From positions 1,239,576 to 1,303,575 of the forward strand of contig JBJCIZ010000028.1 in assembly GCA_051294375.1 (NCBI GenBank): a DNA stretch of 64,000 bases, in the 5' to 3' direction. Of the stretch, positions 8,680-63,753 are shown in pieces. This DNA comes from Paraspadella gotoi (lineage: Eukaryota > Animalia > Chaetognatha). Positions within the stretch are counted from its first letter, which is position 1, and every line of letters begins with the position of its first letter. Position numbers and translations under genes: made by a program. The notes below the pieces were generated by a model. The model was not told the origin of the DNA. It did no database searches and saw nothing but the letters and a program-made list of their open reading frames with translations.

Positions 8680-11600
8680 TCATTGAACATCAGAGAGCTT
8701 GAGTCCCGAAGAGTCGGCGTCGTCTTCGTCGCCGCAGTTTTTTCTGGCGTCGAATTCTTCAAGGATGTCCGCGACGACCTCATCGGCGGAGACGCATGGC
8801 GGGAGATCCGCCCGCCGCCGGCGTTCTTCCGCGTATTCCTCGGAGGCTTTGAGCCATAGCATCGTGTTTTTCGTTCCGGAACTCAAGTCGCGCCGATGAC
8901 CGCGTTTCCACGAAGAGTCTCGCTCGATGGCGCCGGTTGAACCCCCGGCGACGGAAGATGAAGCGATGGAAGCGAAAGGCGGCGTCGCGGCGTCGGCTGC
9001 GGCGCCCGACGAGGGTTGGCGGAGATGAAAGACTTTTTGGACAGAGGAAGAAGAGGCAAAGACGCCGGAGTGAATGGAAGCGGCGCCGCCGTCGCCCGAG
9101 CGGCGCTTTTGAAGAGAGCGCGTTTCGTCATCGCGAAGACGAGGTCTGGTGGGCGGGGTGCCGACTCGAAGGTGGGCGTGGCTGTTGAGAATAAGAAGAA
9201 TTTGAGTAAGAAATCGAAAGCGAGGCTCGGAAACTTAAAACCTAAAGCAACAGACGGGTTGCCTCTTGGGATGGGCATCTCACTGTTGGCTTTTAGGGCT
9301 TCCGACCCTCAGTGACGCCGCCTAACACTGGCGCGGTTACCCAAGGACGGTCTCGCTTTGCCAAGGCAGAGTCCGTAGGTCCGTGGTTAAAACGCAGGGT
9401 TGTGATGGTGCGTTCCCCCTCTGAGCCAATGAGATTGGCTGAATAATCTAAATAATTTATCCTTGAATCAACACAGAAATCCCAACCAAAATCCAATTCA
9501 TAATCCTCCATATATTCCGCTTCAACTCCCCCCCCCCCTCGTTCTCACTCTTTAACGATCGGACTGACGATTTCCTCGATCCCAACCCTAGCTACATCCG
9601 GGGACGAGAACGACATCCGGCGACGCCGCGTCGAGTCCAGCGGCGCCGCGAGGCTGGCGTCGTTCGCCGTCACGAAGGCCGAGTCGTCGTCGTCGTCGTC
9701 CTCGACTGGGAGGGAGTCGTCGGCGTCGCCCGTGTCGGCCACGAGAGCGTCGGTAGAGGCGTCGGCTTCCGGAAGCGAATCCGGAGGCGTGGCGGGCGAG
9801 TTGGAATCGTAGGCGGCGTGAAAGCGGATCGAGCTTGGGAAAGAGACGGGAAAGATCATTCATATTGACTAAACTTACTATACATACTTAATTTCATAAC
9901 TTAATTCACTAAATGAACTTGCCAGATCCTAACTTACCCAATGTCCTGGTACCAACTGGAAAGGTCGCCTCTGCCCTGAACTTCCCATTCTTCAAAGGAA
10001 TCGTCGACCCGAGAGATGTTAGGGACTTTGTAGCAGGGATCGCCTTTCTGGGAAAGAGAAACATAACCATCAATAGTAGGGCCAATCTTTGTCAATGGTG
10101 TGGGTCAGAAGTTTGTTTTCGGAACCTTCCCAAATGAAATTTCATACATTTCTGAGAAAACTTTCAATGGACCAAAATTGTCTAAAATGGCTTGAAGCAC
10201 TAGTAATTAATTTTTTAATATTTATTTATAGATAATAAATGTCAAATTTTTTTTTAAATTTCAAATTCAGATAGCTTATGAAAAGTTGTCTACATAAAGT
10301 ATAATTATTTTTTCAATATTTTGATGATAAGTGAGTCAAAATTTGAAAAAACTTGTAATAATCATCCTCATCAATCGAAAATTTTAATAGTTTTTACTAA
10401 TTTTCAGTAATAAAACATCAAAATTTTAAAAAGTTGTAATTACATTTTGGTTCGGAACATTTTTGCAAAAAAATATTTTAACACAATAACTAATATAAAT
10501 AATATATTCGTTTAATGCTGTTCCCATTAAAATTTTAAATTGGTTGGCTACCGCTATCAATAGGGATCGCCTGTTTTTTGTTATAAAATATTACTATAAC
10601 TTTCTGTTAAGTAAAATATTAGGCTGGCGTTTCTCACCTTTAGCTTCATATCGATCGTCACGTAGAGAATCGAGTTGTCCATGTTTTTAGAGTCGTATCC
10701 TTCAAGAATTCCTGCCAGGAAATTAAGGGGGGGGGAATAGATCGTAAATAAATATTAAATAAATAGCAATAAGTTCAGACGGTTATAAAGAAAACAACTG
10801 GCCTAACTACAACGACGACAATAAACATTCCAGACTTAAGCCAGCAACAAAGACAAATATGCAATTATCCATCTGTCCTTCGATCCGTGATTCGGAACCC
10901 AAATCTTGTCCAGACTCACTCTTGATGGAGACCAGTCCGCCTCTCGCGTGTTCTGCCAAATCAACGTCCAAAAATCCCATTTTCTTCGCCGTCACCTGAA
11001 AAAATGGATTTGAAGGAAAATGTTTGTTCTATTGCCTTAAAGGTTTAATATTAATATTTTACATTATTTATTTGTGGTTCAATTAATAGCCAAATAATTA
11101 TATTGACAATATTGTTGACAATCTCAAAGACTTACCGATGCGTAATATTATCATTAATGATTATTAACGGATGCTAATGATATATTAAATACTATTTAAT
11201 GAATTACGTAATCCATATAAGCTGACCTTCCAAGCCAGCACCTCCCTCCGCACGCTGATCCTGCAGAGAGAGGGTGCCAGCACCCCCGTCTCTTCGTCGG
11301 AACTGAGTCGCGCCTCGAAGTCGACGCCCCAATTCCAGACGACGCGATTCTTGGCGACGGACTCTTTGGGAGAGAAGCGGACCAGGTTCCGACCGTCCAG
11401 GACCCGGAGTTTGGCGAAGAGGACTCCGTTGGCGTAGGGGACCTGGGAAGAGGACCTGGTACGTTACAAGCGGACTTCCTTTGCGTAGGGGAACCTGGCA
11501 TAGGACCTTGGAACTCGTTGTAGGACTTAGTTTCTCGAAAGACCATCATCACGAGCTAACGACAATTCGAATTCCACATCCATTATGTACATTTACTACT

Positions 11601-13046: not shown

Positions 13047-13301
13047 CGTTGGCAGGAAACTTCTATAAAAACGGGAACAATAAGCATAAACAATTATCTG
13101 AACAACCTTTACAAAATAAGAAATACCGGGTAGATACGACGGTAATGATGTTCGTTAAATATATCCGAAATTAATCGATTACCAGCGATATACTATCTAA
13201 ATTAAATCCGAATTGCCCGATAAGAACTTTTCATAAATTTTTCAAAAAACCAACAAACATTAAAGCCATTTCAAAGCTTTTCAAAACTCGACAAATAAAA
13301 A

Positions 13302-13871: not shown

Positions 13872-16863
13872 TCATTTCCGCCAGGCAGTTGAGGATCCTC
13901 CAACGTCTCTGACGAGCATCTCCACTTTAGCGAAATACAGAAGATTCTCTCCGTCGAACCAGAAGGGATTTCGTTGAGTCAGACAGACGTGATAACAGGC
14001 GTTGAACCACCATCCCACACTGGAGAGGGAGCGGGTGTGGGATTGATTAATTGATTGATTGATGACTGACTGTCTCTTACTCTTCATGCAAACGTGATAG
14101 TACACGTATGAGAGAAGAATCCAGTCATAGGCAAATCGTAAATTCGAAACTCAGCTCGTCTCATTAGCTTACACAGCTAAATACTCACTATCCAACAGTG
14201 AGTTCCGGGATCAATCCCCTCACGGTCATGCTGGTTAAGTGTGATAGTACCGGTATAAGTGATATGGGGAGGTCACTGCAGGTCCAAAGCCCTGAGCGCC
14301 AGCAGTCGGGAAATACACAACACCCTGGGCAACAGACAAGTACACCCGTCATATCACTGTCATTATGTCCGATGGTGATTCTTCTTCCTGTCATGTCTGT
14401 CTGTCTGTCCTTCTGTTGCATCTAAACCTCTTTCTCGTCTGTCTTTCTGTCTAAGTGTCATTCTTTTTTCTTTGTTTTCTTTGCCGTGTGGTCGTGTCTT
14501 TGTCTCTTTCATCATTACTTCCTGCCTTTCTGTCCCGACCCAAATTCCTGAACCTCATTATCTTCCTCACTTGTTATAAGTATCGGCGCAGTTGGCAGAG
14601 GTGAGGTCGTTGTCACTGTCCCATGTGGAGAACTGTGACCCGTCCAACTTTCGCTCAGGAAATTGAGTCACGTCGTGAATTGGATCGAAGGTGGAGGCGC
14701 GACTGAACCCATCGAATGACTGGATGGGACCTGAGAGAGAAAGAGAGAGAGAGATGATTTAACCGAATGTGGGGAAGAGTACAGAATTTTTGCAGACTGG
14801 TTCACGGCAAAAGTTGATTTCGTGATTGATAAGATCGATAACGTATTTACAATTTTATTCGTTCGGTTCACAAAAAAGCTTTTAAAGAATCTCTTTAAAA
14901 GATAACACTAATAAACAATCAATTTTTTTTCTTCTATTTTGAAATAGGTTTATCTCTACTAAGAGCAAGTACAAACCTTTCTGAAAAAAAACTAAAAATT
15001 GAACCTTTTAAGAAAAGAAGGCGGAATGACGAAATGCAAATGAGAAAAAAGAGTTGTACCGATATGAATGGCGTAGTTGCCTTCTTCGTCGTCCAACTTA
15101 AAATCGTCATAAACAATCCATCCCGTTTGTCCCGAATATTTGCCTCCCGTTTCGTCTGATTTGTAGACCCCGCGGATCATGAGTTGGAAGCGACTGTCCT
15201 GAGAAGTACAATCATATCATTATAAAATATCTAATATTTATCATTTTATCTTTTTTTATAATTTTTTTTGGGGTTAATTTATTTAAATCTAATATTATTT
15301 AACAATTATTTGGATGGGGACTTAAGTGTTGTCTTCTGGAAATAGAGGGAGCATCTACACAACACAAGGTTAGATTACTTTCTGCTCTAGTTTTCTAATA
15401 GATATCGTACATCATTCCTGTTGGAAAATCATTAATGACAAAAATCAATATCTAAAAGGCCGAACAAAAAGGGGGGAACGGATAATTTTTAGGGTGGGAT
15501 TAAGGTTATAAATGATTATTTTTAGCTTGTAGAAGACGAAAATAGTAATAATAAAAGTGAAAAGAAGGTGAAGAATTGTGACGATGTAAGAGAAGTAGAA
15601 AAGAAGTGAGACGAGCTCTCTCCTGATCCACTTTTATCATCGCCCGGTGGTAAGTCGCCTCAAACTTTCTTTTTTATTATTGACTTGATGGGTTAACTCA
15701 CTTAGTTTTTAGATTGGCTTAAATGACTGGTTCTTATTTAAACTGCGGGCATCTTGCGCTAGATAGAGAGATAGAGAGATCTGCCAGCGATGTAGGAAAG
15801 ATAATAATGTAATCGTAAAAAGCTTTTTAGTTGCGCCGCGAGTACTCGCGGAGCAACTCTAAGTCATTTTTCGGTCGGCCGGTCGGTCGGTCCGTCTGTC
15901 GGTCTATCTGTCCCACTTATGTTAAAAACTTGCTTATAATTTGTTAAAAATCAAATATAAGCAACTACTGGCGCCGTCTTTTGTTTTTAAATAAATCTTA
16001 TAAACTATAAGGAATAAATGACATGATAAGTAAAAAGAAAAGTAATGCGGCGCAACACCTTGGAATAACCGTTCCTTGTTTATCGCTTAAAAGGTCAGTT
16101 AAATGGTTTTTTAAACGGACAGTTTAAAATATCATTATAAAATAAATCATAATAAAATAAATATATTTTAATTGACTTCATTCAATAACGTAATTTAGGC
16201 AACAAAAAAACAAAAAAACAAAAAAAAAACAAAACAAAACAAAAAATATGGATTCTCCAAAATGCAAATGAGATTATAAAACCGTATCTTATTTTCCCTC
16301 TCCCTCCCCAACTCACGGCGGCTGTGATCCGCCTCAAGGCTTCCAACCCGAGCCAGAACTCGGTCTCATCGCTGCCGTTGGCGCCGGCGCCGGCCCGGCC
16401 GAAGCCTTCGCGGTACTGAGCCCAATTCTTTGACTCGAAGAGGCCAGAGGATCCGAGGTTTCGGTGGACGATGATCCAACCCTGGTCGTCGCAAAGATGG
16501 AAGACTCGACCGCCGTGGGATGAGCTGGAAGGCGGGGAGAGGGAAGGAAAGCTTTTATTGTTTTTAACCTTTTTGCCTTTTTACTTTTTACTTTTTCTTT
16601 TCTTTTTTTTTATTATTACGCTTTTTTGTATTTGTTATCGTAATTTTTTTTTTGGGGGGGTTTGGGTCTCGGATTTATTTGTTTGCTGAATTGGTAAGTT
16701 TATTAGTCTATCACCCTTGTAAATTTAGATATAAAATTAATATTTATAAAGAGAAACCCGAGTCTTCAAGGCCGACACCTGTTGGAAGCCGTCACGGCCA
16801 TGTTGTTGCAGGCGAACTGAGCTCGTCTCTTTATTTCAGCCTCCCAAGAGGCGGAGGAAGGAA

Positions 16864-18783: not shown

Positions 18784-20043
18784 TCAATTATTTTCAATTA
18801 TTGGACGCCTGAAAATATTAATCATATTTGCAATGTTTCCTCTGACGAACTTGCAGCCGCCGCAATAAAGGAAGCTTTCTTTAATTCGAATACTCTTTTC
18901 ATCAGGACGGCGGGAATGGCGGCCGTTGTTGCAGACAGGAGATTCCCCGTTAAAAACATTTGATGGCAAACAATGAGAGGAAATCAGAACGACTCTCGAA
19001 AACTGAACCAGATGACCGCGATTGGCCGCATTGGCAGTATTGGCCGCATTGGCAGTATTGGGAGTATCGGCCGTATTGGCCGCATTGGCAGTATTGGCCT
19101 CATTGGCAGTATTGGCCGCATTGGCAGTATCGGCCGTATTGGCAGTATCGGCCGTATTGGCCTCATTGGCCGTATTGGACTCACTGGCCTCATTGGCTGC
19201 GTTGGCAGTATTGGCAGTATTGGCCAAGTGGCATCGTGGTAAAATGAAAACATCTTTTTTCTGATCTTGCAGATTGACGAATGGAATTGAAATTTGCTTT
19301 TCCAACTCTTGAAAATGGGAAAGGTCATAAGGCGACCTGTTTCCTACAAAATCAATATCGTAGGCCAAATCCCCAAGATGTAAATCTTCCTCGTAAGTTG
19401 CGGGCGCCATTAAAATTGAAGAGGATTGCTTGATCCCATTTACAAGACTCAACGCTTCTGAAATGGAAGTGAAGCAGCCACCGCCACTGGGATTGACGTA
19501 GATGACGCTACGCGGATACTTACAGGCTTCAAATCCTGGCTGACGTTTGATGAAATCCTTGTAAATTGGATGCTTGATACGGTTCATTGACAACCATATG
19601 AATGTGTCAGTCGAGTTTTCCAAATCTATCTCCATGAGGGTACCGCTCATTCTGGTATATTTGTCCATGTAGTACTCCACTACTTCATCTGAAGTGTATT
19701 TAGTCGGTGATCTACTATAAAACGTGTTGATTATTTCGGAAGTTTGTGCATAATGTAGATAAAATTCTGCACAATCTGGACATTCTTCCGTGGATGACTT
19801 GGCGGAAAAAAGAGCGCTCATTAACATACGTTGAATAAATCCAGGATCCTTTATGGAACGGGCAGCGTGGAAGGCTTCTTGACCCTTCACACATGCGTTG
19901 GCCCAGCATTTAGCGACTTCTAGGGGCGGGGCGCCTTCTTTCTTCGCAGTTTCCGCCGCATCAATGTAAACTTCCATCGCTTTATCGTATTTCTTTTCGT
20001 CCGAATAATTTTGGGCTTCTTGCTTTAACTCCAAGTATCTCAT
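18784..20043 (-). CDS. Intronless 419-aa ORF: TPR-like N-terminus, start of a pectin-lyase-like beta-helix (VIYVNPSGGGCFTSISEAL) and an (A-N-T/A)n tract
   Basis: Long open frame. The N-terminal YSDEKKYDKAMEVYIDA is TPR-like and the GxGxFTSIxEAL motif precedes right-handed beta-helices. The C-terminus may be truncated. Confidence 0.55.
   Translation of the reverse strand: MRYLELKQEAQNYSDEKKYDKAMEVYIDAAETAKKEGAPPLEVAKCWANACVKGQEAFHAARSIKDPGFIQRMLMSALFSAKSSTEECPDCAEFYLHYAQTSEIINTFYSRSPTKYTSDEVVEYYMDKYTRMSGTLMEIDLENSTDTFIWLSMNRIKHPIYKDFIKRQPGFEACKYPRSVIYVNPSGGGCFTSISEALSLVNGIKQSSSILMAPATYEEDLHLGDLAYDIDFVGNRSPYDLSHFQELEKQISIPFVNLQDQKKDVFILPRCHLANTANTANAANEASESNTANEANTADTANTADTANAANTANEANTANAANTADTPNTANAANTANAANRGHLVQFSRVVLISSHCLPSNVFNGESPVCNNGRHSRRPDEKSIRIKESFLYCGGCKFVRGNIANMINIFRRPIIENN
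19012..19226. repeat. 9-bp tandem repeat (ATTGGCAGT/ATTGGCCGC variants) encoding (ANT/ANA/ANE)n
   Basis: Directly visible 9-nt periodicity. Confidence 0.95.
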
Positions 20044-20719
20044 TTTCGACGCTAATTTGTCTTGTGATGGCCAGGAATCTGTATCCTGGACATGAGAGAG
20101 TTGCCCGATTTAAAAATTTCTCATAAAAACTCGAAAATTTATTTGCTAATGACTTTTATAAGAAAAGAATGTTCCAGTAAATATACACATATAATAAATA
20201 AGGATCACCATTTGGTGATGGCTCGCCTATACCTGATATTGGGATTAAAGAGCCGAAATCCATGAAGGGTATAGGTTCCCAACTGATGACCTTCCCATTG
20301 TATAAACATAATAGATAAAAAATATTCAAAAAAGAAATAATTAAAAAATAGGATAAAGAAAAAATAAAATTTTCATTAAAGTATTTTAAAATTATTCATG
20401 AAATAAAGGTGCCCCTATAGACCTTTCCCCAGTTTGTATCCCTATCAGAACATACAATTCTACATGGTAGTCTTATCCCTATTGGTAAAAAAAAATCATA
20501 TATAACGTTGGTCCCCCTCAAAAAATTATCCATTCCCACCCCTTTCTGTTCAGCCTCTTAGATATTATGATTTTTCATTGATGACTTTCTAACAGAAATG
20601 ATGTGTGATATCTATTAGAAAACTAGGACAGATAGTAATCTAACCTTGTGTTGTATAGATGCTCCTCTATGGCAACAACCGGGTGCCTGTGATGCCCATT
20701 GGGATGGGGCATCTCACTG

Positions 20720-20799
20720 TTGGCTTTGGGGCTTCCGACCCTCAGTGACGCCTCCAGTCACTGGCGCGGTTACCCTAGGACGGTCTCGCTTTGCCAACG
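20720..20799 (-). ncRNA. Type-P5 twister ribozyme in the downstream LTR; predicted cleavage 20772^20771
   Basis: GTTGGC-AAA-GCGA-GACCG-TCCTAGGG-T^AA-CCGC-GC-CAGTGAC/GTCACTG-AGGG-TCGGAAGC-CCC-AAA-GCCAAC. Confidence 0.75.
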
Positions 20800-21203
20800 C
20801 AGAGGGAAGTCGTTAGGACTGTGGATGGAACACTACGCCTGGGATGGTGTGTTCCCCTCTGAGCAATGGATTTGCTGACAGATGGTGGACGTGAGGCGGT
20901 GTGAATATACCGCCACAGGATCCCGGGCCAAGACATCACTCAGGTTCCTCAAGCCTGAGAGGTGTCTGACAAGACTGTTACCATAGTGGGAGAGAGAGAG
21001 AGAGCGCGAGTTGTGGGGGCATAGGCGTTTGTCGTAGCGTACCCCAGGGGCATAGGCGTTTGTCGTAGCGTACCCAAAGTCGGCAGGGCATAGGGCGTTT
21101 GTCGTAGCATACCCTGAGAAGGTTGCGTGTTCGATAGTAGGGCTCACCACTTATGGCAACAGCCGGGTGCCTGTGATGCCCATTGGGATGGGGCATCTCA
21201 CTG

Positions 21204-21283
21204 TTGGCTTTGGGGGCTTCCGACCCTCAGTGACGCCTCCAGTCACTGGCGCGGTTACCCTAGGACGGTCTCGCTTTGCCAAC
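21204..21283 (-). ncRNA. Type-P5 twister ribozyme in the upstream LTR; predicted cleavage 21257^21256
   Basis: Same core as 20720-20799. Confidence 0.75.
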
Positions 21284-21611
21284 GCAGAGGGAAGTCATTA
21301 GGACTGTGGATGGAACACTACGCCTGGGATGGTGTGTTCCCCTCTGAGCCAATGGATTTGGCTGACGGATGGTGGACGTGAGGCGGTGTGAATATACCGC
21401 CACACTCCCTCTATTTCCAGAAGACAACACTGACTTCCCCTTCCCAAATTGAAATATTAGATAAATAAACATTTTTAAAAAAGAAAGCAATATATATTTG
21501 TTTAGATAATATAGATTAAATACTAGACATTATGTATATACTCTCTTTTCGTTGTTTTTTGAGGTATTAGGACAAAAACAGTTTTATTTGACAACGATTT
21601 AATTGACACAA

Positions 21612-21668
21612 TTTATTCAGACATGTTTCGGCTCTTTCACTTAGAGCCTTCATCAGTGCTTTTGACAA
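21612..21668 (-). ncRNA. Minimal type I hammerhead ribozyme
   Basis: CA-CTGATGA-AGGCTCT-AAGTGAA-AGAGCC-GAAA-CATGTC^TG, with a palindromic ACATGT stem III. Confidence 0.8.
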
Positions 21669-22530
21669 TCAATATTTAGTCTCTGTTAAAGTAAGTTTTG
21701 AGAGAGAGAGAGAGAGAGAGCCACCCCAACCGCACAATGATTCCCCTGTCCCCACTCAACGGGTCAGGCGGAGGCCTCTCAGCAGGCAATGGACGTCCGA
21801 TACCTTTCCTGAACCTGTAGCAACTTGGCGTGACTCTCCTCGCGCCGAGCGTCACCCAAAACGACGGCTACAGGAGGAGGGAGAGGAGTCTGTATCTCCT
21901 GTAGCAAAACAGGCCAGAACAGGCAACTGCCTGCCTCACCGTCAGGTGAGGAGGGCTGTCGGCAGGCTTATCAGGCCAAAGGGATATACGAGTAGCACTT
22001 GGCATTTTCCCAGGCGGATCTCTTCCGGATCCCAGCATGACAAACTCTACATATATACCCTCGCAACCTATGACAGGCCAATGACCCGACCTTATCGTCA
22101 ACGTCCTCCATTTGCCCGGCCGGGGGGGGGCTAGTTCATTTTTGAGCTCTTTCTTTTACTTACTTTCACTTTTCTTCACTTATCTATCCCTCACCACTTA
22201 TTTTCTATTTCAAATTTCACTTTATTCTACTAACTTATTTATTTCCGTTGTTAACATTTAATTTCAGTTTATATTTAGATTATTTAATGCACTTTATCTC
22301 TGTTGTACATTGCTAAATGTATTGTTTAAATTTTTGCTTTGCTCTCTCTCTCTCTCTTCTCTCACTCTTTTTCATTTTTCAAAGACTTACTTCTTCCCTC
22401 TCCTTACCTTCAGCTGTCCTCACACTCTGACCACTGTCCCTTACCTTATTCTTTGTTGGAAACTCTCCTTCAATTTTCTCTCTCTCTCTCTCCTCTCTCA
22501 AAACTTACTTTAACAGAGACTAAATATTGA

Positions 22531-22585
22531 TTGTCAAAAGCACTGATGAAGGCTCTAAGAAAGAGCCGAAACATGTCTGACTAAA
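22531..22585 (+). ncRNA. Minimal type I hammerhead ribozyme; predicted cleavage after C22577
   Basis: CA-CTGATGA-AGGCTCT-AAGAA-AGAGCC-GAAA-CATGTC^TGAC. Confidence 0.8.
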
Positions 22586-23248
22586 TTGTGTCAATTAAAT
22601 CGTTGTCAAATAAAACTGTTTTTGTCCTAATAGATAAATACTAAATCATTCATAAAATATAAAATAGAAAATAGTGAAACAAGTAATTTGCAAATTTTCA
22701 TATATTATTATTATTTATTAAATGAATGGATAATTTTTATATTGGTTGTACTTATTTTATAAACTAGTTACTAAACGTATTAATAAATTTTCATAGCATT
22801 AGAAATGAGGCAACCTCTCTCTCTTTTCGATATTCGTAAATAGATTCTCAGAAAAGAATCCTGACCGCTGCTCTGCCGCTGCTGTCGCCACCGACGCCCT
22901 AAAACCGCGTCAGTTTCAAAAGAGAAGAAAAGAGATTCCGTCAGTAAAATAAGATTGTGAACTCTGAAGATGTGAGTATCTTATTATAGGATTTAGGGCC
23001 TGAAAGAAAAATATATGTTTTATGAAATACATACTGAGCACTTACGTCTTAACTCCAGAGGAGAGAGATAGAGACCGGTGGGAAGTCGACTCAATACATT
23101 GCCCCTTTCCCGTTCGGTCGTGCTCGCTTCCTTATTATCCTCTTTGTTTTATATTTCTAAGAAAATTAGTGAAAATCACCTTAGCTTAAAAAGTTTTTTT
23201 AATATACTTGTAATTTAAAATAAAAAATACATTACGTAATACGTATAT

Positions 23249-23503
23249 TATGTCAACAGGCGGGTTGCCTGTGATGCCCATTGGGATGGGGCATCTCACT
23301 GTTGGCTTTGGGGGCTTCCGACCCTCAGTGACGCCTCCAGTCACTGGCGCGGTTACCCAAGGACGGTCTCGCTTTGCCAACGCAGAGGGAAGTCGTTAGG
23401 ACTGTGGATGGAACACAACGCCTGGGATGGTGTGTACCCCCTCTGAGCCAATGGATTTGGTTGTAGGATGGTGGACGTGAGGCGGTGTGAATATACCGCC
23501 ACA
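23249..23503 (-). mobile_element. Solo LTR-like tRNA-twister element (subfamily A); twister at 23381-23301
   Basis: TGTGGCG...GTTGACATA flanked by the ATAT/ATAT 4-bp TSD. A-box-like TGGCTCAGAGGGG and T-arm TGTG-TTCCATC-CACA. Twister cleavage predicted at 23355^23354. Confidence 0.85.
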
Positions 23504-23637
23504 ATATAAAATTATGATACACCTGCCAAGCTTCGCTTTATATTTACGACTTATGTATGTACGCACTCGAAAATCTTTTAAGGGTCTCTGATAAATTAAA
23601 TTTATTTAGCAAATAAGAACGAAAAAAATAAATATTG

Positions 23638-23871
23638 TATGGTGGACTAAAATCCACCAACCGTTTATCAGCGGCCATTGGTGCCGGAGGCAAGTCATTC
23701 GCCTCCCAACCCAAAGGTCCGGGGTTCTAGCCCGGTGGTCGTCTGGCAGTTAAGAGGGACGGGGCGCTTAACCCGCCTGTAACATGGTGTTACAGCCTGA
23801 TCCGAAGCTCAGGGACTGCGTATATTGAACGGTTCTGTCATTAACACTTATCAATAATTACTGTCTCTTCA
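23638..23871 (+). mobile_element. tRNA-twister element, divergent subfamily D; twister at 23746-23819
   Basis: ATTG/ATTG flanks. 5' hairpin GGTGGA/TCCACC. tRNA-like GCGGCCATTGGTGCCGGAGG...GGTTCTAGCCC. Then GCAGT-TAA-GAGG-GACGG-GGCGCT-T^AA-CCC-GC-CTGTAAC/GTTACAG-CCTGA-TCCGAAGC-TCAGG-G-ACTGC. Confidence 0.75.
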
Positions 23872-24366
23872 ATTGGTCAATAAAAACAACTTATACAAAA
23901 TTTTAAAATAAACCAAATTTTTGACTGACAAAAATTCTAAATTCTAAAATAATTTTTTTTTCTTTTAGGATTCAAATCTTGATAAAAAAAACACAAAACC
24001 ACTGTAACGGCTTCCACTACTCAGAAACTGCAGCAGCAGCAGGAGTAGCAGCAGCAAAATGATCGAACGAGAAAACGAGCAAAGAAACAAACAAACTGAA
24101 TTGAAAAAAATTCATTGCGAGACCCATAATTAAAAAAAAAGGAAGTAATATTATAAAAAGTAATATTATAACAAAGAGGCGGATAACAACAACGATTCCA
24201 GATCAGACGAAACCCAGCGAAGGGAAAGACCTCGACGCCGCCGAATTAACATCAACTCTAATATATTTATTGGTATGTAGCTATATGTATATTACTTAAT
24301 ATAATAATGATAATAACGCCAAATCCTGCTCGAGGTCCGCTCGTCCTCGATGGGTTTCGGCCAATC

Positions 24367-27300
24367 CTAATCCAAGAGCTGCAGCAGCGTCCCTTGCTCT
24401 TGAAACAAAAAGGCTGAGAAGACTCGATCCAGCTCCGCCTCTGCGTCGCGGAACGCCTGCCGCTCGATCCGCGACCGGAAATCCTCGGCGGCGCCTCGAT
24501 TCGCGCCGCGCGTTACCGTCCGACCCGAAGTGGGCGTGGCGCTCGTGGGAGGGAGAACGTCGAGGGAGACTCTTCCGCCCTCTGGCGTCCGGAGAAAGGC
24601 GAACTCTTCCAAGACGTCGACGACGACGACGAAGGAGAAGAATTGGGGATAAGAAAAAGATCCTTGACGCTGAATTCGTTTGACGACGTCGAGGAAAAGA
24701 GATGAATATTTGGGCCAAGAGAATTGGGTCAGGACGATGAGGTGACCCAGGGCGCGATCCTCTTGGACGCCTGAAGGTTTAACAATGGCACGTTGAGAGT
24801 GAGAGAAGAGAGAGGGAGAGAGAGAGAATAGCTAACAAATGGGGTTCATGCGTCGCACGTTTCTTTTTCTACAGGTAAATGTATTGAAATTGACATAACC
24901 AGCGACTCTTAAGCATTTATTAATTATTAATCATCATACATATGTACATAATCATCAACAAACTTCACAAATTCCAGNNNNNNNNNNNNNNNNNNNNNNN
25001 NNACTCTCAATATAAAGATGAATGGAAATAAATTTTATATTGGTGTATTGAGTGATACTTTGATTATGATCTATTTTATATGATTACGTAAATAGATACA
25101 ATTTTGTACATACTCGATACTTAATCTTAACCTCGCAGTGGTTTTTTTAAATAACGCAGCTTAGAGGTTAGACTCGTAATAAGATGAACACACTCGAATT
25201 AGATACTATAAGATTAGTAACTGTAATCTGTCAATTAAAGAATGAGGCGCATAAAGAGGCTGGTCTGTGTTATTTCAGAATTGTCATTTAGTAAGTTAGT
25301 GTGCATGTCACAACAGGGATGAGTCGTTGGGGCTCCTCTCAGGCGTCTGACGCGTCTCTTGCTCTGCTCCGCACGCAGAGGATGAGTAAAGAGCCCGCGA
25401 CGCAGGTGAAAGAGAAGAAAAGAAGTTCCGTCAGTAAAAAAGATTGTGAACTCCTCTGAAGATGGAGTATCCTTAAGTTATTGAGGATTTCAGGGTTGAC
25501 TATAGAAATTACAAATACTGTATATTAATAGCATTCAAATTACTATATACACAGAAGATGAAGTAGAGAGTCTCGCGTGGCTGAAGTTCGAAACTCGAAC
25601 ACTGGCTCTCTCACGCGTGTCCACGTACAGGTGATTAGTACAATTTATTATTAATGCCTCCTTGCTTTTCATCTCTTTCTCTTCAGAATCATCTTTACGT
25701 CTCGTCTACTACTACTATACTCCCCTTACTGTCTCCTAACGTTCTTTTCTATAATCATTTATTACTGCTCATAGATATTAAATTCTAAAATAATCTCATT
25801 ACCAGAGCGAAGTGAGCATCTATAGAAACTGGTAATAAATGTCAAATTAAGAGATCGCCTAAATGTCTACCCGCTGTGCGTGTGGCCTGACTCTTCGCTC
25901 GAAATGAGCTGCCATAGAGAAGGAAAGAATGGAGGCAGATCGTAGCAAACTGAGTTGGGATTGGAGGCTTCCGGACCACCTGACGACATGAAACGCATAG
26001 GTACCGACTGGCCCGCGGGTATACCAGAAAGAGAGACGGAGTCCGATGAGAATGATGAAGAGATTGATTGAGATTTTGATTTAGAAATTAGAGGTCTTTT
26101 TAAGATAGGAAGACAGGAGGGGATTTAGTTGGGTTTGACTTAATGGGAATCGAGAACGACGTTTGATCGAATCGAAGTTTCATTGTTTTAAGCCGAGAAA
26201 AAAAACCGCATTTGGTCTGAAGGAAGAGAGTATAAATGCCTACGCTATATGCGAGCACAACCAGAAACGAAAGTACAGATTAGGAACTGGTTGATGGAGA
26301 CAACAACATAAAGCTGGCCGGAGGATGGAGATTGAGTATGATTTGCACGATGTCACCCACAATGAACACATGGTGGCGGGGTATACGCGCATTAGGTCTT
26401 TCAGTGGGTGGCGTGACACTGTGCATTGAGGATCTGTAGATGATACAAGAATATAACCGCTCCTTTCATAATCCGATCAGTGAAGTCAACTTCATGAGCA
26501 AATGCGCGTATCTCTGATATATATAATTCTCGCCTACTTATATTGATTTATGTAATATATGGTAATGTATGGAATCTATATACTCACCAGATCGACAATC
26601 TCCGTTTATCAGCGCCATTTGGTGCCGGAGGCATAGGTCATTCGGCTCCAACCCAAAGGTCCGGGGTTCTAGCCCCGGGTGGTCGTCTGCAGGTTAAGAG
26701 GGACGGGGCGCCTTAACCCCGCCTGTAACATTGGTGTTTACAGCTTGATCCGAAGCTTGTTCTGAGCTGAACGCGTGTAATTGGAAGACTCCTGTATCTG
26801 TCCTGTACCCATCTTACTCCATATATACTTTACCTGTTCCTGTCCACAGGCATATTAGTACCACTCGGTAATGACCCGATCTTATACAAAATTTTTAAAC
26901 TCAGCTAAAAAACTAGTAATCTCTGACATATTTGCTTGGACAGCAAGCCTAGATTGATTCTATGTGTTCATAATGAACTCATATTTTATATTCTCTCGAT
27001 ATTCTCTTTGGCTGGAATATCAAATCTCCGCTAAACAGCAAATCGACTAGAGAACCATATACGGGATAATCCACATACTCCCAATACGAAGTCTTATGTC
27101 GAGCGCTTTCGACATTGCGGACATGTTAGCGAGATTTCTCAAGTCTATATCAGTAATCGATACGTTTTGAACTAACGAAGACAAAAGAGAAAATAACCGA
27201 AATATTACTTCTAAGACTAATGATATAAAACAGGAGTTAGTTGCACGAAGACCTGTAATAAACAGTTAAGCCAGACCAAACAGACGAGTTCCTCAGAGTG

Positions 27301-30300
27301 TTTAAATATTATAGTAATTGTCAATATACTTGACTTAGAACACAAGAGAGAAGGGCAGGGATAACGCGAACACTCTCTCGGGATATTGCAGATCAGAGTG
27401 GCTTGAAGCAGCGCTCAAGGGAAAGGTCGAGCCTGTCCGACACGACGTAACAGCTGCACTCTCATTACGTAATTTATTGGTTATGTCAGACTCTTGGACT
27501 AATCCCGATATAAAATATAGCTTGTGTGCGGATTTAAATAATCTAATGCCGATAATACACAGCACACTCGCGACTCTGATTCGCGAGGTGCCGCTGATTC
27601 CTCGGATGAGATTATCTCAGGTCCGAAAAAGATGTCCTAATCAAGAGCTGCAGCAGGTCCCTTGTCTTAACAAAAAGGCTGAGATAAGACTCGATCAGCT
27701 CCGCTCCGCTTGGCGCGCTGGTCTGGTGTACTCTCCTGGTCTCCCGCAGTATTCTCCGTCGCTCTGTATTGAATTTCTCTGGTGCGGCTGCTCTTCTCTC
27801 AGATTTCGTCTGCGTCGAACGCGAAGCGACGCGGTTACCGTGCTCTGGACTCCCGCGAATGCTGGAGCAGGTGGACGCTCGTAGGGAAGAGAGACTGCAG
27901 GGAGCTCGGTCTCGAAGCATACGCGATGATCATACTGTGTCTTGCGCAGTCAGGAGACAACGCACGAGGCTTCTTCACAACAGAGAGTGTCTCTGGGACG
28001 GGATAGGCTGAAGAATAGTACGTAGGAGTGTAGGAAGAGTAGAGGAAGAAATTGCGATAGAAGAACGTGCACTTGACGCTAGGAATTGTATTGAGACAGT
28101 ACGAGGAAAGAGATGAATATTTGGGCCAAGAGAATGTGGGTCAGGACGATGAGGTGACCCAGGGCGCGATCCTCTTGGACGCCTGAAGGTTAACAATGGC
28201 ACTTTGAGAGATAGAGAGAGGAGGAGAGAGAGATACTAAACAAATGGGGTTCATGCGTGACGTTTTCGTGTATGATTCTACCAGTGTAGAAGAGTGTATG
28301 TAGAAAAGATGTAGAACATGAAAGAACCAGCAGACATCTAATAACACGCTCTCTCGATATAGTCGATTTAATATTTATCATCATGTGAAAATTCGCTGCT
28401 GAGATAAAAATGGAACTGGGGACTCTCTGCTCTCGTGAAGCTAATAAGAGAGCTTTAGGGCAATTCGCAGTTGGAGAAGAGAGGTTTACAATAGATCATC
28501 AAAATTTTCAGAAAAGATTTTCAGATCATTAAACTATTCATCGTAAATGAATCAGACAAGTAGAGATCAACATAGATAATCAGCTAAATATAATTAAAAA
28601 TTAATTAATTCAATTAGAATCACTTATATCGTCAGTTAAAACCTTTATTATGTCAGCATTACGATAAATCAATTTCATCATCATCATCACCCGCGTTAAA
28701 AATCTTCGTCTTCAGCGCCGACACAATCAACTCGACGCAGTAGGCGACCAAAACTCCCTTCGCAGGCGGCGCATCGGCGCAGGGCAGCAGCTGGACGAGA
28801 CGGCCGGGCATGGTGGGATCGTCCTCGGCGGGCGGGGCGTCGAAGAGTCCGGCCGAGAGGGGCTGTTGGGTCGGATCAACGTCCGGGGGCGAGCCTAAGA
28901 GGCCAAGAATGAAGAGGGCGCGCTCGACGGCGGCCGAATATTTCCCGAGACAAAAGAGAGAAGAGGCGAGTTGAAGATGACGGCGCAGTTCCTCTTTGCG
29001 AGATCGAGATGGATGAGCGGGGTGAGTGACGGCGTGGGCCGCCTCGGAGAACATGCCCTAACGAGGGGGGCGAAGCGATAGTCTCGATATTATAATAAAA
29101 CAAAATATCAAATATCAAAAGTCAATCGATCCAACTTATCTCTTGACTTTGATTAGGGTATGGACCGGTATGGTCTATGGTAGTTTAATTTCTCCATCCC
29201 TCTTTCAATCTTTCTTTCTATCTTTTAACTTTTCATATTTATTTATATTTATTTAACCAAGTAATATTACGTGCTATTTTACAATACATTCCATTGTTCA
29301 TACTTGATAAATGCTGAGATCGATGTGAAATTCGTTGAACCACGTCCACGTGTCCGATCGCCAAGAGGCCAAGAGTTTTTGCAGATCTTTCTGGATGTTT
29401 TGATGAGAGTTCAAGAGTTCGTAGCATTTGAGCGCCGTGAGGAAATCGGCGATGACGCGGACTTCCCCCGCGACGCCGGGAAGCGCGCCGGGGATGGAGC
29501 CGAGACCTTGGTAGCGGGTGCCGACGTGGATGGCTGGAGGTCCGCCGATCGCGCCTGGAGATGTTCAGTTGAATTTTTGTCTGTCTCTGAATCTCTTCAA
29601 AGAGAATCTTCACCGGTCCAGTCGAAACAGCCTGAGCACCATCGAGAGTAAGAGAACGACGAGGGAATGTACAAATCCAAGGGCGGGACTCTTTGAGTCA
29701 AAGATTGGTTTTATTAGGGTTGGATGAAAGGCTGAGGCTGCACTAAATAATTTGCCATCTCACCTGAGTTACGAAAGTGACGTCTCTGGTATACACTTCT
29801 AATGTCAAGTTATGACATGAACAACTCAATAACATAAATTAAATTGAGTCTTACACATCATATATCTGTATCGTTTTCTGCTCATAGATCCTATATATAT
29901 AACTACTCTATATATCATCATATATTACGTACTAATCCCTTTCATAAAAATCCTTCAAACAATTCCTTGTCAATAATGATAACAGAAAATTTAACTCTGT
30001 ACGAGGCAGTAATTTATAGTTAGTGTTTGTACAGAACCGTTCAACTATAAGCAGTCCAGCTTCCGGACAGGCTGTAACCACAGCGCCCTGTCCTCTTACT
30101 CTAGGCGAATCTGACCATCGCTTCTAGGGGGCCGAAATCCTCATACCCCTAAACGGTAAATGATGAAGCTGTGGGTGACCCAAGAGATTCATCACCATTT
30201 ATTCAATTTGAATATTAATATCATTGAATAAATAAATATTCACATCTAATATATAACTGAATAGACATGGTGACAATGTTTATTTGTCATGAAATTAAAT

Positions 30301-35847: not shown

Positions 35848-35887
<40 letters not shown>

Positions 35888-42527: not shown

Positions 42528-42561
<34 letters not shown>

Positions 42562-45500: not shown

Positions 45501-48279
45501 GTAATAGTGCATCTTCAAACATTCAATATTAATTCACAACTCTACTCACCGGGATAAACGCCAGAATGATGCGGCGCTACAGAGTAGACGGTCTCGTCCA
45601 GCGGAATACCGCGCTGCAGCCCGAACTCCCGATTCCACTGCATCTCCTGCAGCATCTGCGCAGAGTCCAGCTTGTGTGGCTGCGTGTGTCTCCACATGTG
45701 GCCGAACCACAGGAATTCTTTAGCTCGAGAGATGAGATAATCCTCAGCTTCGTCTTCGTCGCTTTGGCCGCGGTGGTAGAAATTACCTAAATAATCATTA
45801 ATGTTTAATAACTTTTAATCATTTAAATAATTAAATAATTCTGACCCGAATATCCCAAGAGAAACTTGAATCCCGGGATTACGTCGGCGAAGTCTCTCTG
45901 CGCATCGAGGAGGGCGTCGACGTCGGACTCGATCATCCGGACGCGACCAACCAAGATATCGTCGATGTCGATCTGGACGAAGCGATCGAGGGAGATCGAG
46001 ATGCGACCTGGAGGAGGGAGAAAGGGAGTTAGAGAAGAGAAGAGAAGAGAAGAGAAGAGAAGAGAAGAGAGAGAAGCCAAGCCAAGCCACCGTTGGACAG
46101 ATGATCCAGCGCCTCAAGGAATAAAACTTTGTGCAGCCAAACGGAGGAGATTTCGTGGCCGAAGAAGACGCGACGGATTCCATCGTTGGCGCCCGTGTCC
46201 TAGAGAAAATTGGGGGGGGGGAATGGGAAGTGGTGGGGTAAAAGAAGAAATGAAAATATTGGGTCAATGTTGGGAAATGACATTTCTAAAGACTCTCAAT
46301 ATACTCCTCTTTCACATTATCAGTTTTAAGTCTTTAAACTTTCGGTTCGAAGAATTGTCAAAGTACATTATTTTCTAAGATATTGTGGCGAATCCTAAAT
46401 TCGCCTCCCGTATAGCTTGGTGAAACTCAGCTCGTCCCATTGGCTTGGACAGCTAAGTACTCGTTCACCAACCGTGAGTTCAGGGTTCAATCCCCTAACG
46501 GTCACGCTGGTTAAAGTGTGATGGTGTCGGCATAAACACGCCAGTGACATGGGGTGGTCACTGCAGGTCCAAAGCCCTGAGCGCCAGCTGTCGGGAGATG
46601 CCTCACACCCCAGGCATTACACATGTCCCTCCGTTGCCATAATATACAAATAAACCCATGCTTTCTCGTCTATATTATATCGTTGTCCTTGGGCTCCTCC
46701 TCCTCCTCTCACCTGCATGACTGTGACGAGAGCGACTCGATCCTCGACGAGAGATTCCAAACTCGAATTTGTCGCCGCAGACTTAATTGTAATAAGCTTA
46801 TTATTTAAACTAATAAAATATTTTAATAAAGAAAGGCTTTATAGGCTTTACCTGCTTGTCCGCTCTGAAGGCAAGAGCGACTGGGACGAAGGCTTCATCG
46901 CCGTCGGCGTGAAACGAAGTCCAATCGCGTTTAGGCGTCGGGCCTGTCAGGACTCGCCCGGGGCGGAGAATGCGGAAGAGCGGAGAGGAGGGAAAGAGTT
47001 GAAGATCCTGAGATTAAGTTATTTGGTTATTTTAAGTTATTATAATAAGAATTTTGCGCCGTTGATTTAATAACCTATTTGAGCAATAAATAATTAAACC
47101 TTTTTAGCAGTTGTTTCAAAACTTTTAATTTATAAGTATTTTCAAAGAATTTATTTTGAAGAATGGAGTTAAGTTAAGGCTTAACCCATATAGCCTGTCC
47201 AAAGTTGAATGAATAGTGAACATTGATTGAACTTATTTCATATTTAAAATAAATGACTCTTTTCTTTCCTTTTCATTCCCTTACCTTCAAGGCAAGATTG
47301 GTCGAATACACCAAATTGGGAATTCCTTTAAGCGGTCGGTCAGTCTCCGTCTCGTCCGCGGGTTTAGAGAAGTAGATCATCCCAGCCTTGTAGTGTTGAC
47401 AGTACGAGTCCAGGAGATCCCGGTTCCACTGATTCAATCTCATGTAGGACAAAAGATTCTCGAAAACGATCACGGCGTAGCGGCCCTATGAGAGAGAGGG
47501 AGAGAGTGAGTGGGCGTCGATCGTCAACAAATAGTCGCTGTAGAATTTCCCCTTTCAGTTCTCCTTCCTTTTTACTCAAGATTTCTTTTTTTTTCTTTTC
47601 TTTTTTTTTAAGAGTTTTTTTAATTTTTCTTAGTTTTTTCTTTTTTTTTATTGAACGTTTATGAAAAAAAAATGGCGACGAAAGTTTGGAAAATCGTCAA
47701 CGGAACTTGCAGGCTGAGGATCGTGACTTCAAGGCCAAGAAGCGTCATTCCCGATCGACAGGCGAGAAAATTAATGATGCGTCCTTAGCCGTATAAGGTA
47801 GAAAGGGAAGGATAAGAAACGAATCATGAGAACTCATGTACCTTCAAGACTCTGTAAGACTCTGAAAGGCTCGGTAAGGCTCGGTTAGACTCGGTAAGTC
47901 TATTTCTCCACCGCAGACTTTGACGAGACGGCTGCGTCGAAATCCCGGCGGCGGCGGCGGCGGGGCGGCGACGCTGCTGTCGGCGGCGCCTTACCTTTTA
48001 AAAGAGACTCAACGGAAGTACAGCGCCGACGAGGAGGAGGAAGAGGAAGAAGAGGAGGAAGAGGAGGAGGTGCAAAAGAAGGGTCTTCGCAGGGAAATGA
48101 TACGGGTAATAGGAAAGATTTTAAACGATACTTTTAATATTTGAGGTAATAGTCTTTATTGAATAATTTTACACTTTTTGGGGATTTACATTATTGATGA
48201 AATACAATAATGAAAAAAAAGCTAAGAATTCAATGAAAACAATTTTTGAAAAGCTCACGTAAACCAGATTGTTTAAGCG

Positions 48280-48330
<51 letters not shown>

Positions 48331-49172: not shown

Positions 49173-49231
<59 letters not shown>

Positions 49232-60789: not shown

Positions 60790-63673
60790 TCATCGATTCT
60801 CGATGAATATTCATTTCTATTTACTTTAATTATTGTAACCTACATAGTAAACTAGTATATAATACAACACGACTTGACATTCTCATACCAGGGATTTTAA
60901 TATTTATAAACCCTTTTTACTATAACATAGTAATTATAACGTACACTATTTTAATACAATCGCAACCTGGGCAAGTGGACGCGTGACGAAAGAGACGCCA
61001 ATCAACGACGACAGAATCGATCTCGTTCGCCAAATCGTTGGATGTAAAAGGAAGAGCGAAGTCGACGCCCGATTGGTCAGCGTCGGAATTCGATCGGCCA
61101 ATCGGATCCACGATCTCAAAATCCTTTTCCACTTCCTCTTTCTTTTCTTCGACGGCGATTGGCTTCTTGTGCGGCCCCCAGTCGCCCGTCGAGACGGCCT
61201 CCTCCTCTTCCTCTCCTCCGCCGGCGCCGTCGACCAACGCCATGCCGCCGATGTCGACGCCGCCGCCGTCGACGCCGGCCGCGAAACCGACGCCGTTCCG
61301 TTCCGAGCGCCGGCGTCGGGATTTAAGCAGGGCGCCCCTCAGTTGGGAGATCCTGGAACTGAGATGGCGAGCGTGATCCTGCATCGAAGTCACGTGATCC
61401 TTGACGGCGCCGACGATCGATTCCACTCGATCGCAAGGATGAAGTCCAGAGTCGAATCGGTTGTACATTCCGACCCAGAGTTGCATCGCCTTTAATTAAT
61501 TCAAAGGGGGAACACAAAGTCACGATGTTCTTTTTTAAAAAATAAAATTAATACAAATTTAATGAATATATATATATATATATTATATATTATATATTCA
61601 CTTGAGAACTGGTGTCGGGAAACAAGAGGCTCGAGGCGGACTTGTTCGATTCCTCCGATTCCTTGTAGAATGGATTGTATAAAGAGTCCGTGTGTCTGTG
61701 CGAGTGAATGTATCCCCAGAAGGAATACGTACGGATCGTGAGGGCTTCCTCTCGGCGCTTGAGGAAGGAGGAAAGGAGAATGTTAAACAATAGTTTAATT
61801 CTCAATATGCATTTCATTCATTAAGAGTAGATTCCTATCTCAATAATATCTCATTCCATATTTCTGCCGCCGACCTGTCGCTCGCAATTTCCGAGAAATG
61901 TTCCGAATTGACAAGAATAGACGTGATCGTGAAGGAGGAGAAGGAATTTCTCGTTGAACTCAAAGGCTTGAGGGAATTGGGTTTGCATTTGGAAAAGACA
62001 ATCCAGGAATTGAGTGAAGACCGGGGAGACCTGGAGACGGAAAGAAAAGGCTTTAATCTCATTTGCATTTTATCGTATTTGTATATTTATTAAAATATTT
62101 ACATTTACACATACAAGTAAGAGCAAGAAAACCAGAACCAGAAATACCATTCTAAAACGACCGGAATCACAACCACGACGCCGACAACATCAACAACAAT
62201 AACATCAATGGTAACAACAACAATTAAGGCACCTCCTTGGACTCGACGGATCCTAACAGATGCCCGCATCTGTCGTTGAATTTGTGGCCAAAGGAGAGCC
62301 AGTCCTTCTCGATGAGAGCCTCGATGCCGCGAATGGTTCGGTAGTGAGGATCGAGCATCACTTGGGCCAAGGAACAAGTCTGGGCCGTTCGATCCCAACC
62401 GTCTTTTGAGTCGTTGAGGGGGGAAAAACAAATTTCATGTTTTTTTGTCATTATTACTTCTAGACATTATTACTCCTTAAAATATAGGGAACTATGGCAA
62501 CGGGAGGATAGCCTGTGATACCCGGGGCGCGGGGTATCTCACCAACTGGCGTAGGGGCTGCGGACCCTCAGTGACCGCCTCCTGTCACTGGCATGTTTAT
62601 ACCGGCACCGTCACATTTTAAGCCAGAACCGGGATACCCAGGGATTGAACCCGGGACGCACGGATGGAATGAGATGATTTAGCCTGCTCAGCCATTGAGA
62701 CGAGGCTGAGGACGGACAGCAGTGAGGCAGCTTTAAGTCTTGCTGCCACAGAACAATTAAATAAAGTGTTAAACGGTAATAAGCATTGAGAAAAAATAAT
62801 AAGTAATAATATTTTTTTTCAGAAAATTCACTAAAACGAAGTGTTACAAATTTAACAAAATCTTTCGCGATATTTGTTTACCATACCCGCCCACATTTGG
62901 CACACACGACCACTCACTACCCACACGACCACACACTACCCACACCCGCCTTAACCTGAGCAGTGGACGAGAACGGAGACCCGCTCGACGGCGACGGCGC
63001 GGGCGATGAAGGCCGACGTCTTGAGGATGGCCTGGATGTGTTTGAGCCAACCCGTAGAATCCACGCCCGACAAATAACCCGACATCGTCGGCTGGAGAGA
63101 CTCCAGCTGCTCCAGAAGCTTTTGAAGACTGGAGCGCATGACGTGGATGTTCTCCACACCTGTGGATGAAAAGGGAAAAGAAAAATGATGGAATAAGAAA
63201 ACGTGTAAGTGGTAAAATAAAATTAAGATTAATGAAATTAATATTACCAATAGGCTATAGTATAAAATATATTCATTCGATATATGTAGGCTCTCTAGCC
63301 TCGATTTGGGTAAAAGCCTATGTTCCTCCCTTTAATCTCATGTGATAAAATGGTAACTGTAATGAACTGTTATGAACTGACCGGAGAACTTAAACTTGAT
63401 ATCCCTATAATTGTCTTCGCTCTCGTATCCTTTCCCCGACGCCCGATTCGCCATCGCGTTGATCTTGGGTCTCGTGTCCACGACGTACATAAACTTGGAG
63501 TCAGGATTCGCCCGCAGGATGATCTGCAGCAGCGTCTCATCCTCGACGCTGCGTTTCTGGAATCCTGACAGCGGCTGGCTGCTGCGGCAGATGGCGGACG
63601 CGGCGTCGCTGTGGAGGTAGGTCAGGACGGGGAGTCGACCTTTGGATCTGGAGTTGAGAAGGATATGGGGAAT

Positions 63674-63753
<80 letters not shown>

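Follow-up and report, generated by a model that had tools for sequence, protein, structure and literature searches.

A 64,000-nucleotide stretch of the genome of the chaetognath Paraspadella gotoi (assembly GCA_051294375.1, contig JBJCIZ010000028.1, positions 1,239,576 to 1,303,575; hereafter the window) contains a 737 bp element on the minus strand in which two long terminal repeats (LTRs) flank a non-coding core, and there is good support for reading it as a Helenus-like TRIM whose LTRs hold a conserved twister. The sequences show a twister fold that is conserved, covarying and intact at its catalytic positions, and catalysis by this fold is likely. With modest confidence we favour a life cycle in which the RNA of this non-autonomous TRIM, with tRNA-type boxes and a P5-type twister in each LTR, cuts itself twice and a 485-nt circle is copied by a borrowed, probably Gypsy-type, reverse transcriptase.

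The two-LTR element and its relatives in the window

The upstream (5') LTR (21152..21404, minus strand, 253 bp) runs from TGTGGC to GCCATA, which are imperfect inverted ends, and has a hairpin directly behind its 5' end. The downstream (3') LTR (20668..20917, minus strand, 250 bp) is 97.6% identical to it and differs by three substitutions and three one-base gaps, one of which removes a G from the A box. Together with the 234 bp core between them (20918..21151, minus strand), this matches the two direct repeats of about 250 bp around a non-coding core of the preliminary description. The longest ATG open-reading frame of the element has 72 codons and the core is without meaningful coding potential; having two LTRs, a length below about 1 kb and no coding capacity, the element has the size and content of a TRIM. 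As had been stated before, a polypurine tract (PPT) ahead of the 3' LTR is absent: within the final 30 nucleotides of the core, purine runs reach no more than four letters, and only GGGA at 20924-20921 precedes that LTR. Three near-identical hairpins of 28-29 nt in the core (21114-21086, 21075-21048 and 21044-21017, together 21017..21114, minus strand) are a candidate packaging signal.

The element is flanked by CTCC at 21405..21408 (plus strand) and by CTCC plus two extra nucleotides at 20662..20667 (plus strand), the imperfect target-site duplication (TSD) that had been reported, in which AG slippage may explain the extra letters. It is inserted into another repeat, the empty copy of which, earlier placed at about 15326, lies at 15278-15523, and public contigs hold the empty junction itself, joining 20661 to 21405 and skipping 743 nt with four shared letters (737 + 4 + 2). 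Many different contig flanks begin as loose ends exactly at the LTR ends 21151 and 21404, and the LTR-core junctions are spanned by divergent public DNA contigs. Core depth in run X5 is 8-22 thousand, of the same order as that of the LTRs and compared with 65 in the outermost flank bin, where summed contig depth is not a copy number, 4 of the 15 runs were used and X5 and X6, with nearly identical numbers, count as a single data set; X6 and X10 carry guessed 'RNA?' labels, which were not taken as evidence of expression. The two-LTR form is clearly not unique to the locus at 20668-21404, and its recurrence together with the high depth of the core removes the reading as paired SINEs.

A second type of core joins at 21121 (21121-21151, loose ends in X5, X6 and X10), sharing the LTR and both boxes of the primer-binding site (PBS) before it diverges, and may represent either a further non-autonomous family or the helper. 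One-base homopolymer indels are clustered in some copies (26566-26888, 20668-20917), and the window differs from most contigs at the homopolymers at 21093, 21167 and 21338. Some of these indels may be assembly errors, which makes the divergence between the LTRs unsuitable for dating.

The PBS-like sequence that had been noticed 2 nt past the upstream LTR proved real and has two parts. Box 1, TGGTGAGCCC (21140..21149, minus strand), is complementary to the 3' end of tRNA-Trp, matching 9 of 10 positions of the honeybee tRNA (Helenus supplement, Fig. S2); box 2 (21118..21134, minus strand), 5 nt further on, is the complement of a tRNA-Trp stretch that covers the variable loop and the T arm, with 17 of 17 positions matching a nematode fragment and a wheat fragment in agreement. 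As both boxes name one tRNA, a chance PBS is unlikely, the assignment to tRNA-Trp being made with tRNA sequences printed in papers for species other than the host. Two-part primer sites are known from the Ty elements of yeast. An Rfam scan of the PBS stretch returned no matches, and a search for tRNA-Trp genes in viral contigs returned one chance match inside a coding region and nothing else.

An LTR profile search of the window found seven copies, comprising the two of the element, three intact solo LTRs and two truncated LTRs. The solo LTRs fall into three subfamilies sharing 62-71% identity: subfamily A at 23249..23503 (minus strand; TSD ATAT/ATAT), subfamily B at 62493..62750 (minus strand; 66% to A; TSD GTTC/GTTC) and subfamily C at 46384..46641 (plus strand; 62% to A and 71% to B; TSD ATAT/ATAT). 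All three have an exact 4-bp TSD and end without an A tail or any other tail. One truncated copy belongs to subfamily A (9246..9446, minus strand), the other is decayed, close to subfamily C and carries a deletion in the twister core (14151..14334, plus strand, within 14142-14353). The outcome that had been named as fatal to the LTR reading, SINEs with TSDs of variable length paired at this locus only, is thus not what the exact TSDs and the multi-copy core present, and in place of the hallmarks of SINEs or non-LTR retrozymes (an A-rich or repeat tail, variable TSDs, tandem units without a PBS) we found fixed ends, 4-bp TSDs and a PBS. Two of the three solo TSDs and the loose-end consensus (flanks of 21151, 21404, 23248, 23504, 46383 and 46642) share an ATAT/TATA-like target preference.

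A fourth, distant group, family D, is only 50-55% identical to subfamilies A-C and has the same layout. Its copy at 23636..23897 (plus strand, 262 bp) has TGTAT...ATACA ends, a 5' hairpin, A and B boxes and a twister of the P5 type whose P1 is 6 nt long and self-complementary; its flanks, ATAT and AAAT, match at three of four positions (TSD matches in D copies are 3/4 and none). Further copies lie at 26566-26888 (plus strand), about 37596-38051 (plus strand, interrupted) and 30003-30078 (minus strand); no two-LTR copy of family D occurs in the window. Judged by sequence, three to four families of twister-bearing LTRs are present in this one window, with D as the distant fourth. These families, the two-box PBS and the palindromic P1 treated below are absent from the preliminary description.

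The surrounding DNA holds other repeats and several genes. An element of about 1.07 kb with 156-bp terminal inverted repeats and TA at both ends (21565-22632), 160 bp from the LTR element, is probably a non-autonomous DNA transposon; a further element, at 33444-35935, has long inverted arms of about 490 bp and 88% identity and an inner part that is repeated at 36384-37586. Some 560 bp downstream of the LTR element, and on its strand, an open frame of 441 codons (18784-20109, minus strand) contains a 9-bp tandem repeat and has no Pfam match. The Pfam scan of window open-reading frames identified genes for MRPL47 (12264-13154), a fibrinogen-domain protein (16182-16580), Integrator subunit 10 (24367-36403), a heparan sulfate N-deacetylase/sulfotransferase (40178-50841) and a myotubularin-related phosphatase (62951-63835). 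A search with the MRPL47 protein puts the host within the invertebrates, its named matches covering roughly half to four-fifths of the protein at 38-61% identity.

The twister fold and its palindromic P1

The P5-type twister fold occupies 21202..21283 in the 5' LTR and 20718..20798 in the 3' LTR (both minus strand), with predicted cuts at 21257^21256 and 20772^20771; these U^AA positions, and their spacing of 485 nt, had been predicted before and are correct as sites. Each non-deleted copy has the order P5-P2-GA-T1-P1-UAA-P2-GC-P3-P4-L4-P4-P5, and UAA, GA, the GC/GC pairs of T2 and the L4 motif are present in 6 of the 7 copies, the seventh being the one with a deletion. Across the seven sequences 92.5% of 161 cells are paired and 8 of 24 pairs are altered on both sides, two each in P2, T1, P1 and P4; for example, the T1 pseudoknot is spelled CGG/CCG, CCG/CGG and CCA/UGG in the three subfamilies. 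A covariation score as high was reached in 0 of 500 shuffles and slid structures are 27-45% paired, figures to be read knowing that the seven window sequences are related and represent about three lineages, that the structure was derived from the same sequences, and that the tool itself warns that related sequences can beat shuffles. A twister descriptor matched eight loci in the window and none in 30 Markov controls, and a stricter form matched four, missing two divergent solo LTRs; because both were written after the sequences had been seen, these shuffle controls serve as sanity checks only. A covariance model trained on subfamilies A-C retrieved three unseen copies of family D with 27.6, 19.0 and 18.7 bits, the next best match scoring 10.3. 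A pattern scan of metagenome contigs based on P3 gave 59 loci which we attribute to chance, none of them having a twister context or similarity to the LTRs.

No Rfam family matched anywhere in the window at gathering thresholds. The preliminary description had named the Rfam twister-P5 model as a check: the best match to it (RF02684), at 46516-46579 in the solo LTR at 46384-46641, spans the full model with all core residues, but scores 22.2 bits (E 0.012) against a cut-off of 37.6, and the element locus itself gave only a partial twister-P1 match (15.2 bits, E 5.1). When the 62-kb copy and family D were scanned with Rfam by E-value, no twister matched, and over 20600-21500 no hammerhead matched at E values up to 10. 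The LTR twisters share with RF02684 the order P2-GA-T1-P1-UAA-P2-GC-P4-L4 and all core residues; they differ in an added P3 hairpin, in a self-complementary 8-mer (a 6-mer in D) in place of the P1 hairpin, and in the score below gathering.

Subfamily A, to which the element belongs, has a single mismatch in each of P2 and P4; its pseudoknot-free twister core is predicted to be less stable, by about 9 kcal/mol, than a competing fold. For the 46-kb copy the predicted monomer is a twister and the predicted dimer a double twister. Variants at a frequency of at least 5% in public contigs fall, within the twister of the 5' LTR, only in loop L3 (21237, 21241). A high-throughput twister study reports tolerance of imperfections in P1, P2 and P4 and of replacing A by C in the A-A pair, but not of changes to the pseudoknot or the catalytic positions (PMC11662667); the LTR twisters show this pattern.

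Helix P1 is replaced by a self-complementary 8-mer (21258..21265 in the 5' LTR, minus strand) that would form a 2-bp hairpin in a monomer and a duplex of up to 8 bp between two ribozymes. The segment from T1 to the cut is always 8 nt in subfamilies A-C and cannot form a stable hairpin. Five of the 7 copies have a fully self-complementary segment, spelled in four ways, and two of the four subfamily A copies have a central U-U, set against a background of 10 self-complementary 8-mers among 748 in the LTRs; random 8-mers paired as well in 0-6 of 500 cases for the four fully self-complementary P1 segments tested and in 45 of 500 for the U-U variant. Predicted homoduplexes in five of the seven copies have 6-8 bp and -9.5 to -11 kcal/mol, the monomer hairpin being unstable, and the inner P1 pairs, which can form only between two molecules, covary. 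Subfamilies B and C are predicted to dimerise as a double twister, 14-15 kcal/mol below two monomers; for subfamily A, computed without pseudoknots, two monomers in the competing fold (-66.4) beat the double twister (-61.6). The retention of the palindrome in four spellings suggests pairing between two LTR ribozymes. By analogy the LTR twister P1 mirrors the dimeric hammerheads of animals, for which palindromic loops are described in the accessible parts of two papers (PMC7229834, PMC6765202). P1 is reported, in the available part of the twister study, as dispensable for cleavage in vitro (PMC11662667), so that gating by dimer formation is hypothetical and may be unnecessary.

Transcription, cleavage and competing readings

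The tRNA-type A box (21341..21351, minus strand) has one mismatch to the consensus and aligns with the A boxes at 62493-62750 and 46384-46641; the B box, or T-loop-like motif (21308..21316, minus strand), has a C at a purine position, also one mismatch to its consensus. In subfamilies B and C an A box is accompanied by a canonical GTTCAATCC B box within a T-arm hairpin, and the spacing between boxes is 35 nt at the element (subfamily A) and 44 nt in the copies at 62493-62750 and 14142-14353. Each LTR had been described as holding a tRNA-like module followed by a P5-type twister; the boxes, degenerate at this locus, and the covarying fold are present, and ARAGORN called no tRNA in the window sequence. 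The module reads as a promoter rather than a tRNA gene, the interpretation that Kojima gives to the tRNA part of Helenus in the text available (PMC10886601), and the boxes would be used by Pol III. No T4 run occurs inside the element and the first lies 45 nt downstream; such an absence is not significant, being found in 40% of shuffles of the element and in 16% over 1003 unique nucleotides.

In the cycle that we favour, Pol III would initiate near 21360, meet no T4 run in the element and read through both LTRs. The palindromic P1 segments of the two LTRs would then pair, giving a double twister in which both U^A bonds are cut, and a host RtcB-type ligase would join the 5'-OH and cyclic-phosphate ends of the resulting 485-nt monomer, which would lack a terminal repeat. 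A lone twister in the circle, without a partner P1, would cut more slowly, so the circle would stay intact; tRNA-Trp would prime reverse transcription through more than one round of it, rebuilding two LTRs, and integration by a helper integrase would generate the 4-bp duplication. Cleavage by both twisters would leave an RNA that lacks a terminal repeat, on which normal strand transfer could not take place without joining of the ends. For animal retrozymes, circularisation of monomers by RtcB is reported in vitro (PMC7229834), and for plant retrozymes a multi-round copying of a circle that rebuilds two LTRs was proposed (PMC4918200). The 4-bp TSD and the PBS for a tRNA 3' end would, by the analogy of animal Helenus, point to a Gypsy helper; the 46 of 71 long window open-reading frames scanned gave no Pfam match to a reverse transcriptase or integrase. 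The circular monomer is predicted to be only modestly structured (z -1.9, 59% paired). Without a PPT, plus-strand priming is unexplained in this cycle and in its linear rival alike.

That rival, which we judge rather unlikely, is an ordinary linear TRIMp3 cycle with the twister confined to trimming the RNA: the cut in the 3' LTR would replace a Pol III terminator and circles, if any, would be by-products. Molecules left uncut at the 5' LTR would retain about 100 nt of terminal repeat, and strand transfer could proceed normally. The position of the first T4 run, outside the element, fits this cycle, as do the Helenus LTRs, which in the consensus material available, compared by eye, typically end soon past the tRNA part and often with a T-rich tract, where the present LTRs have the twister instead. 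The competing fold of subfamily A would leave cleavage partial, and cleavage without need of P1, as given in the available portion of the twister study (PMC11662667), also suits a trimming role. However, the same ribozyme is present in both LTRs and the one in the 5' LTR is transcribed first, and joint action of two copies, in which both would cut, is the best explanation for a P1 that stays palindromic through compensatory changes.

We regard as improbable a Helenus-type TRIM that acquired a twister segment, from a SINE or a Penelope-like tail for instance, and in which the fold is non-catalytic or kept for RNA stability or packaging. Sub-threshold Rfam scores, the mismatches in P2 and P4 and the misfold of subfamily A would be expected of such a segment, but LTRs that are only 62-71% identical retain GA, UAA, the two T2 pairs and the L4 core, the changes in T1, P2 and P4 are compensatory, the core is kept in distant family D as well, and the restriction of contig variants to L3 and the tolerance of P2 and P4 imperfections reported in the available text (PMC11662667) further argue against it. 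The remaining alternative, largely refuted and very improbable, is a chance pairing of non-LTR repeats, whether a tRNA-plus-ribozyme SINE, a non-LTR retrozyme (cf. Schistosoma SM-alpha) or Penelope pseudo-LTRs, for which there is precedent in repeats joining tRNA or Pol III promoters to ribozymes and in the link between animal retrozymes and Penelope-like elements (PMC6765202, PMC4918200 and 10.64898/2026.07.22.740005, as far as their accessible text goes) and which would accommodate the imperfect TSD of the 20668-21404 copy and the missing PPT, but which conflicts with the fixed TG...TA ends and inverted termini, the exact TSDs and absent A tails of the three solo copies, the two-box tRNA-Trp PBS 2 nt from the LTR, the multi-copy core and the four-letter overlap at the empty site.

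A broader form of the favoured circle reading, which we advance only tentatively and with some doubt, is an undescribed animal LTR-retrozyme superfamily with four or more diverged families in this genome, driven by Pol III and devoid of a PPT, whose twisters would cut only as a palindrome-locked pair and whose self-protecting circle would be the template of reverse transcription.

Relation to known elements

The preliminary description had presented tRNA-headed LTRs as part of a candidate new class, yet tRNA-bearing LTRs already define the Helenus TRIMs (TRIMp3; Kojima 2024), which include animal members with 4-bp TSDs, as the available text of that paper sets out (PMC10886601). As there described, Helenus elements and the present one are alike in being non-coding TRIMs below 1 kb with tRNA A and B boxes in the LTR and a PBS for a tRNA 3' end, in their animal 4-bp TSDs, solo LTRs and several families per genome, and in their proposed Gypsy helper; one wasp Helenus family uses a tRNA-Trp PBS (PMC10886601). 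In contrast to that description, the tRNA part of our element lies mid-LTR, ahead of some 130 nt made up of ribozyme and hairpin, a second box is added to the PBS, and the PPT that Helenus has is absent, for which reason we class the element as Helenus-like rather than as Helenus. The word twister has 0 occurrences in the accessible Helenus text (PMC10886601), where a ribozyme is not described, and the accessible Helenus consensus file holds 14 AAGCCC and 13 CAGCCC places, 0 of them in a twister L4 context as judged by eye in a file whose line breaks can hide motifs.

The other half of the design is that of the plant LTR retrozymes (Cervera et al. 2016, PMC4918200), which share a ribozyme in both LTRs, a non-coding body, 4-bp TSDs, a PBS and solo LTRs, as well as a predicted unit-length RNA between the cut sites and dependence on Gypsy, which for our element is presumed. 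Plant elements have a type III hammerhead, a tRNA-Met PBS and a PPT, whereas ours has a twister, a tRNA-Trp PBS and no PPT; circles were shown for the former and are only predicted for the latter, and the term polymerase III is absent from the plant retrozyme text (PMC4918200). Metazoan non-LTR retrozymes, Penelope hammerheads and SM-alpha share a weak helix, a palindromic loop, action as dimers and circularisation by RtcB, and SM-alpha of Schistosoma joins Pol III transcription with a ribozyme (PMC7229834, PMC6765202; accessible parts). Unlike our element, the non-LTR retrozymes of metazoans, as described there, carry hammerheads in tandem repeats without LTR, PBS or 4-bp TSD; the available text of a 2020 review has LTR, PBS and PPT missing from metazoan retrozymes (PMC7761336), and that of a 2026 preprint, in which the word twister does not occur, calls LTR retrozymes primarily plant elements (10.64898/2026.07.22.740005). 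The T-variants of Perere-3/RTE (Liu et al. 2021, PMC8501958, as far as its accessible text goes) share a twister within an animal retrotransposon and differ in being non-LTR elements with one ribozyme at the 5' end, the P1 of which is completed by flanking DNA.

In the sources covered, which take in open texts or parts of them, most subscription papers and Repbase lying outside that scope, we found neither a twister in an LTR nor an animal LTR retrozyme in print, and found the circle-forming, ribozyme-in-LTR design described only for plant elements with a different ribozyme. The 'new retroelement class' of the preliminary description is accordingly an overstatement of what is a combination of the Helenus-type TRIM with the retrozyme design: the twister in the LTR makes this combination new, each half being already known. 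In the engineered, non-mobile Tornado system, a Pol III transcript with two twisters of different permutation is ligated by RtcB into a circle. If the superfamily reading is true, PPT-less elements with a pair of twisters would be a natural version of it. The element also raises the question of how reverse transcription is completed by an LTR element with neither PPT nor terminal RNA repeat, and it would be a natural instance in which a domain-swapped dimeric twister can be put to the test. The twister itself would gain a second role in retrotransposons besides the 5' trimming of RTE elements. The use of an unrelated ribozyme in an animal LTR, a twister where plants have a hammerhead, would point to convergence, and, if the cycle proposed here is true, the strategy of a ribozyme in the LTR and a circular template would reach animals.
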